From: Escherichia phage BEU44
Length of the DNA stretch: 64,000 bases
Strand: one strand, 5' to 3'
Sequence record: OM632670.1
Shown here: positions 28,148 to 28,168 of the stretch, one piece after another
Position numbering within the stretch: the first letter of the stretch is position 1
How the letters are laid out: every line of letters begins with the position of its first letter
Notes under the pieces: generated by a model
Databases searched by the model: none
The model's input: only the letters and a program-made list of their open reading frames with translations
What the model was told of the DNA's origin: nothing
Position numbers and translations under genes: made by a program

Positions 28148-28168
28148 CCAAAAGCTGCGGAGCAGCTT
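28148..28168 (-). promoter_or_regulatory. hairpin promoter of N4 virion-RNAP type (P3-like)
   Basis: ccaaaag + 7-bp stem aagctgc/gcagctt (28152-28158, 28162-28168) with 3-nt loop gga; same architecture as the 32137 and 32606 elements; 40 nt upstream of RNAPII small-subunit ATG. Confidence 0.55.

Follow-up and report, generated by a model that had tools for sequence, protein, structure and literature searches.

A hairpin in the template strand upstream of the RNAPII genes of an N4-type phage genome is very probably the early promoter P3

Introduction

Does the short inverted repeat that lies in front of the RNAPII genes of this phage act as a promoter for the injected vRNAP, and, if so, is it a new promoter or one that is already known from phage N4? 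The three hairpin promoters of N4 have been a textbook example of phage transcription since the 1980s. The initiation sites of vRNAP, three in number and named P1-P3, were mapped in vivo as well as in vitro (Haynes and Rothman-Denes 1985, as cited in PMC4496689), and according to the literature they are confined to the leftmost 10% of the N4 genome (PMC4496689). In each of these promoters, a GC-rich heptamer is centred at -11 within an inverted repeat, and the sequence is conserved from -17 to +1 (PMC4496689). The determinants are a 3-nt loop, an A or a G at -11, a G at -10, a G at -8 and a C at +1 (PMC4496689). Transcription starts eight nucleotides downstream of -8, and the four A's of P2 serve as the ruler that sets the start at this distance (PMC4496689). 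The genes transcribed by vRNAP in the N4 literature are gp1, gp2, gp15 and gp16.

Genome context of the hairpin

The window referred to below is the whole 64-kb stretch of DNA that was analysed. The 2.5 kb around the hairpin are 98.1% identical to positions 3214-5714 of the N4 genome (EF056009), in the opposite orientation, and 100% identical to the Escherichia phages BEU5, BEU13 and BEU14. Judged by its sequence, the window represents a genome of the phage N4 type, and the 98% identity holds over the stretch compared. Within this stretch, a window coordinate x converts to an N4 coordinate of about 32714 - x, with window position 32712 as N4 genome position 1 and the predicted start at 28149 as N4 position 4565. 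Since N4 position 1 is located at window position 32712, the early genes are on the minus strand. With N4 position 1 at ~32712, the window is also an assembly that is circularly permuted and in reverse orientation, with the right-end region of N4 joined to the left end. According to the coordinate mapping, the window lacks about 6 kb of N4 (~32.7-38.9 kb).

The hairpin sits within a gap of 74 nt between the homolog of gp14 and gp15. The genes around it are:

28186..28572, minus strand: gp14 homolog, upstream of the hairpin
27302..28111, minus strand: gp15, small subunit of RNAPII (269 aa), the gene that comes first after the putative promoter
26040..27290, minus strand: gp16, the RNAPII large subunit, an ORF named RNAP2 in the N4 annotation and second in the predicted transcription unit

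The gp15 protein is 100% identical to that of the N4 locus (L002), and the gene is named RNAP1 in the N4 annotation.

Structure of the element

The plus strand at 28148-28168 reads ccaaaagctgcggagcagctt, which can be parsed as CC-AAAA-GCTGC-GGA-GCAGC-TT. The flanking genes are on the minus strand, and the plus strand is therefore the template; written in the 3' to 5' direction, the template of the element is 3'-TTCGACGAGGCGTCGAAAACC-5'. The following parts can be distinguished:

28152..28168, plus strand: promoter template hairpin, with a perfect 7-bp stem (AAGCTGC/GCAGCTT) and a GGA loop at 28159-28161
28150..28153, plus strand: AAAA spacer at positions -1 to -4, of which 28152-28153 also belong to the two outermost stem pairs
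28148..28149, plus strand: template CC, with 28149 as the predicted +1C
28112..28149, minus strand: 5' leader predicted for the RNAPII mRNA, 38 nt long, with a GGAG RBS located 7-10 nt before the ATG (28111)

The two stem arms, at 28152-28158 and 28162-28168, enclose the 3-nt loop and form an inverted repeat in the template strand. The loop centre at 28160 is the G at -11, while 28159 is -10G and 28157 is -8G, and the GC-rich heptamer GCGGAGC is found at 28157-28163. The loop is of the GRA type and is closed by a C:G pair. The spacing from -8G (28157) to +1C (28149) uses the same AAAA spacer as in P2. The element at 28148-28168 thus carries every sequence and structure determinant published for the vRNAP promoters. 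Folded as ssDNA, the hairpin has a free energy of -6.7 kcal/mol, which corresponds to z = -2.9 in comparison with shuffles.

With +1C at 28149, the RNA is predicted to begin with 5'-GGUAAUUAAU on the minus strand, which leaves a leader of 38 nt to the gp15 start codon. The preliminary description had read a ccaaaag, an aagctgc/gcagctt stem and a gga loop at 28148-28168, all of which we confirm, and its placement of the element 40 nt upstream of the ATG of the RNAPII small subunit is about right, the predicted leader being 38 nt. The predicted leader also includes an ATG at 28137-28139 (minus strand), which has no RBS, is out of frame with gp15 and is in the frame of a mechanical 40-aa ORF at 28029..28151. 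This ATG is missing from the leaders of the G7C-type phages and is therefore probably meaningless.

Occurrence of the motif

Both strands were scanned for the full motif, defined as a stem of 5 bp or more with a 3-nt GRA loop, a closing C:G pair, -8G and +1C. Exactly three matches were present in the 64 kb, and their loops are centred at 28160, 32149 and 32618. The template is the plus strand in each case, and the matches are placed in the gaps just upstream of gp15, gp2 and gp1, respectively. In 500 shuffles that preserved the dinucleotide composition, the mean number of matches was 0.016 per window, and none of the shuffles contained three or more. CCAAAAG alone is not enriched, being present in 13 copies against 10.8 expected. 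Hairpins of a generic kind, with a 3-nt loop and a stem of 5 bp or more, are common, with 120 per strand of the window and a density of ~2.3 per kb in related loci.

No fourth canonical hairpin was identified in the window or in the scanned segments of N4, and a relaxed scan gave a sole extra match, at 50993 on the minus strand, with a 3-bp stem. The loop centres of the motif in N4 (EF056009) are 96, 565 and 4554, the last of which corresponds to 6.5% of the 70,153 positions, and the equivalent element in N4 is oriented for transcription toward gp15 and gp16. The motif had no match in N4 30000-41000, which spans the stretch missing from the window, or in the N4 right end (68000-70153).

Conservation and covariation among related phages

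To place the hairpin among its relatives, we collected 80 loci that encode gp15 relatives from viral contigs, together with further annotated phage records. A hairpin of the form GC-tcc-GC, as read on the coding strand, is present upstream of the gp15 start in all 15 loci in which gp15 is at least 65% identical. These loci represent N4, the KP8-like phages, the phages similar to G7C, ECBP1, IME11 and pSb-1, and one clade represented solely by metagenomes. In most of the 15 loci, the loop centre and the start of the gp15 alignment are 44-49 nt apart, and the distance is 280-306 nt in four loci that carry an inserted small ORF. The insert, of ~240-260 nt, lies between the hairpin and gp15 in L018/L005 (KP8), L024, L027 and L030. 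In these four relatives the promoter has remained on the upstream side of the insert, with a new leader from just past +2.

In an alignment of 14 sequences, the invariant positions are GCTCCGC, the -5 C, the TT of -4/-3 and the GG of +1/+2. Two stem pairs vary on both sides in a compensatory manner, with C:G replaced by G:C in three distinct sequences and T:A replaced by A:T in three. The fraction of paired cells was 93%, as compared to 13-56% when the 3' partners were slid by 1-3 columns, and the observed covariation score was reached by no shuffle. Published mutagenesis showed that it is immaterial which bases occupy the non-conserved stem positions (PMC4496689). Fixed contact bases in combination with other stem positions that are free but paired, as seen in the alignment, is the pattern predicted by that mutagenesis.

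The promoter and the leader (28108-28180) have 80-85% DNA identity in most of 46 more distant records, mostly of the G7C type (Gamaleyavirus). The coding sequence of the adjoining gp15 was too diverged for alignment with these phages when the 2.5-kb region was used in a megablast search. In this comparison of DNA sequences, the non-coding promoter and leader stretch is better conserved than the gp15 gene downstream of it, which we read as a sign of selection on this stretch. The 65 loci in which gp15 is at most 63% identical have upstream hairpins at the background density (2.15 versus 2.26 per kb) and share no loop, so that a promoter of this type close to gp15 is not a family-wide feature. 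On these alignments, the placement of the hairpin before gp15 is a trait of the N4 subfamily (Enquatrovirinae) and not of all N4-like phages.

Identity of the element

The two other matches to the full motif in the window are:

32141..32157, plus strand: sister promoter P2, upstream of gp2, with the stem AAGAAGC/GCTTCTT, a GGA loop centred at 32149 and a predicted +1 at 32138
32612..32624, plus strand: sister promoter P1, upstream of gp1, with the stem GTTGC/GCAAC, a GAA loop centred at 32618 and a predicted +1 at 32607

The sequence of the 32618 element is the same as that given for the native P1 template in PMC13434306. The element at 32149 agrees with the published P2 oligonucleotide in its core (CCAAAAGAAGCGGAGCTTC), and the flanks of the oligonucleotide are non-native (PMC13492108). 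With 32618 as P1, 32149 as P2 and three published sites, P1-P3, the hairpin at 28160 is P3 by elimination. Its equivalent in N4, at 6.5% of the genome, falls within the leftmost 10%. A stem of 7 bp and a loop of GGA are also ascribed to P3, and the 28160 element has both. Based on this elimination and on these features, the element almost certainly equates to the published promoter. We are highly confident that it represents an N4-type early promoter P3, that is, a template-strand ssDNA hairpin promoter for vRNAP. It is an already characterised feature rather than a new one.

The sequence and coordinates of P3 were not found in the literature searched, the primary N4 promoter papers being outside its reach, and the P3 string matched only the P3 of KP8 and one unrelated paper in the literature text. 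Promoter features are absent from the GenBank records of N4 and G7C. A 2026 paper in J Bacteriol (PMC13492108) refers to three promoters (P1, P2, P3) in the introduction and to "four early promoters (P1-P4)" in the discussion, so the numbering of the promoters may not be unique.

The proposal that this would be a third hairpin promoter for vRNAP agrees with the published determinants, with the correct orientation and with the location directly upstream of gp15 and gp16, and it is further supported by the hairpin being retained in all the close relatives examined, where the changes in the stem are compensatory. As a rediscovery of the N4 promoter P3, the claim was correct but not new. The element had also been compared to the one at 32137, and the two do share CCAAAAG and the gga loop but differ in their stems (AAGCTGC/GCAGCTT versus AAGAAGC/GCTTCTT). 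The distance of about 4.5 kb given for the other two promoters applies to 32618 (4,458 nt) but not to 32149, which is 3,989 nt (~4.0 kb) away.

Alternative explanations

The hairpin could instead sit at the end of gp14 as an intrinsic terminator, an attenuator or a stem that stabilises RNA, and act on the transcripts from P1 and P2. Its position 17 nt past the gp14 stop codon is consistent with such a role, as is the RNA copy, in which the 7-bp stem is followed by UUUUGG, and there is no other terminator-like site between 30167 and the RNAPII genes. However, the hairpin was not called in the terminator scan, although three canonical sites on the minus strand were:

32202..32221, minus strand: terminator-like hairpin with a T-run, after the gp1 homolog
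31614..31635, minus strand: terminator-like hairpin with a T-run, after the gp2 homolog
30167..30192, minus strand: terminator-like hairpin with a T-run, roughly in the gap after gp7

Only four T's follow the GC core at 28160, two of which are paired, and the tails in the relatives are TTGTGG, TTTCGG and TTAAGG, so there is no conserved U-run. The features that are invariant, namely the TCC loop, the GC closing pairs and the GG at a fixed spacing, are none that a terminator needs, and the same motif also precedes gp1, which has nothing upstream of it that could be terminated. Folded as RNA, the region shows no stability beyond that of shuffled sequence (z = -0.04). An intrinsic terminator was thus rejected on the scan, the unconserved tail and the shuffle-level RNA fold, and we consider such a role of the hairpin at the end of gp14 to be very unlikely.

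An Rfam search of the region gave nothing relevant at the hairpin. The search placed an L20_leader at 31600-31710 (minus strand), over the terminator-like hairpin after gp2, with 25.5 bits as compared to a gathering score of 58.7 (E = 0.098), which is a match at chance level.

A promoter for another polymerase, either the host sigma-70 RNAP or the N4 RNAPII itself in a middle-phase auto-amplification, is a highly improbable reading. It would accord with the AT-rich leader, the N4 RNAPII promoters having been described as AT-rich minimal elements from -7 to +2 (PMC4496689), and with the GC-rich hairpin contained in the middle promoters of LUZ7 (PMC9163698). However, no sigma-70-like site, with -35 and -10 hexamers at a spacing of 16-18 nt, was found on the minus strand at 28112-28185, the conserved bases coincide exactly with the positions contacted by vRNAP, and the middle promoters of N4 are not described as hairpins (PMC4496689). 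The N4 RNAPII (middle) promoters depend on gp1 and gp2 (PMC4496689).

A chance inverted repeat with no function, which the unenriched CCAAAAG and the many generic 3-nt-loop hairpins might suggest, is hardly conceivable and was excluded by the shuffles and the covariation, the full motif being found three times versus 0.016 expected, always before key early genes, and being conserved with compensatory changes in 15 of 15 relatives.

Proposed mechanism and implications

As a vRNAP promoter, the element would act in the manner described in the N4 literature. The left genome end would enter the cell first, and negative supercoiling driven by gyrase would extrude the inverted repeat, after which the SSB of E. 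coli would melt the non-template hairpin and spare the one in the template strand. The template hairpin would then be bound by vRNAP, with contacts to -11G in the loop and to -10G and -8G via the major groove of the stem, and RNA synthesis would start eight nucleotides downstream of -8, with C as the template base. In the window, this would correspond to a hairpin on the plus strand at 28152-28168, a start at 28149 and a transcript that runs leftward on the minus strand, with a 38-nt leader and its GGAG RBS followed by gp15 and gp16, the RNAPII that would later transcribe the middle genes. The sequence analysis shows the anatomy, rarity, position and orientation of the element and its conservation with covariation; the extrusion of the hairpin, the dependence on SSB and the initiation at 28149 are predicted by analogy with N4. 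From the start at 28149, we infer that transcription would produce a gp15-gp16 mRNA and that RNAPII would thus be made directly by the injected enzyme.

The terminator scan gave no terminator-like site from 30167 to the hairpin (28160), so read-through from P1 and P2, by transcripts that get past the site at 30167-30192, may also express RNAPII. P3 would add an independent entry point for the expression of RNAPII but need not be the sole route. It is conceivable, but in our judgement unlikely, that the sequence has a dual use, with the DNA serving as promoter P3 and the RNA copy in the read-through transcripts from P1 and P2 serving to pause or attenuate transcription or to stabilise or process the RNA. 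If so, it would tune the share of RNAPII mRNA that comes from read-through versus fresh initiation. Another idea is that P3 could be the separate entry point for one of the approximately four injected vRNAPs and so help transcription to pull the DNA into the cell.

As a discovery the element has little weight, since the orthologous promoter in front of gp15 is an existing prediction in KP8. It is nevertheless a genuine and unusual ssDNA promoter that can be recognised from the sequence alone, and it can be annotated with confidence in the unannotated records of the BEU phages. The comparative set, with its GCTCCGC core, the GG from +1 and two covarying pairs in 15 loci, agrees with the rules for recognition by vRNAP that were published from mutagenesis and structures. 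It also marks the reach of this specificity, roughly the Enquatrovirinae with gp15 at least 65% identical, which is of modest value.

Comparison with known promoters

The closest known system is P3 of N4, from which the element has no detectable difference. Both are found in the same type of phage, at the same position (6.5%), with the same consensus from -17 to +1 and as the only third match in the genome. Over an alignment of 35 nt, a single base separates the window from N4, and it is located upstream of the stem.

The promoters P1 and P2 of N4 are the substrates in the crystal structures of mini-vRNAP and in those obtained for full-length vRNAP by cryo-EM. The element, P1 and P2 all share the 3-nt GRA loop, the closing C:G pair, -10G, -8G, +1C and CC at +1/+2. 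The element and P2 also have the GGA loop and the AAAA spacer in common, while the variable stem bases are CTG in the element and AAG in P2. P1 differs from the element in its 5-bp GTTGC stem, its GAA loop and its ATAA spacer. The three promoters also differ in what they precede, the element being located before gp15 and gp16, P1 before gp1 and P2 before gp2.

The promoters of the KP8 and G7C types are located at the orthologous position and have the same invariant GCTCCGC core and GG from +1, but their stems contain compensatory substitutions, with AAGCAGC in KP8 and GGTGC in G7C. KP8 and three metagenomic contigs differ in that they have a small ORF between the promoter and gp15. KP8 has been reported to have four early promoters (PMC6950046), and the element orthologous to the hairpin is the predicted early promoter P4 in that study and is annotated as "early promoter" in NC_048700. 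In G7C, the hairpins with a G at +1 are placed before gp1, gp2 and gp15, which are the same three positions as in N4. G7C has an additional GCTCCGC hairpin at 509, without a G at +1.

The early hairpin promoters of the Pseudomonas phage LUZ7 were mapped by ONT-cappable-seq (PMC9163698). They resemble the element in that the hairpin is in the template strand, has a 3-nt loop and is read by the injected vRNAP, but they have another consensus and spacing, with the start located 13-14 nt from the hairpin centre (PMC9163698). Nine early sites were mapped in LUZ7, and the strongest of these drive Drc rather than RNAPII (PMC9163698).
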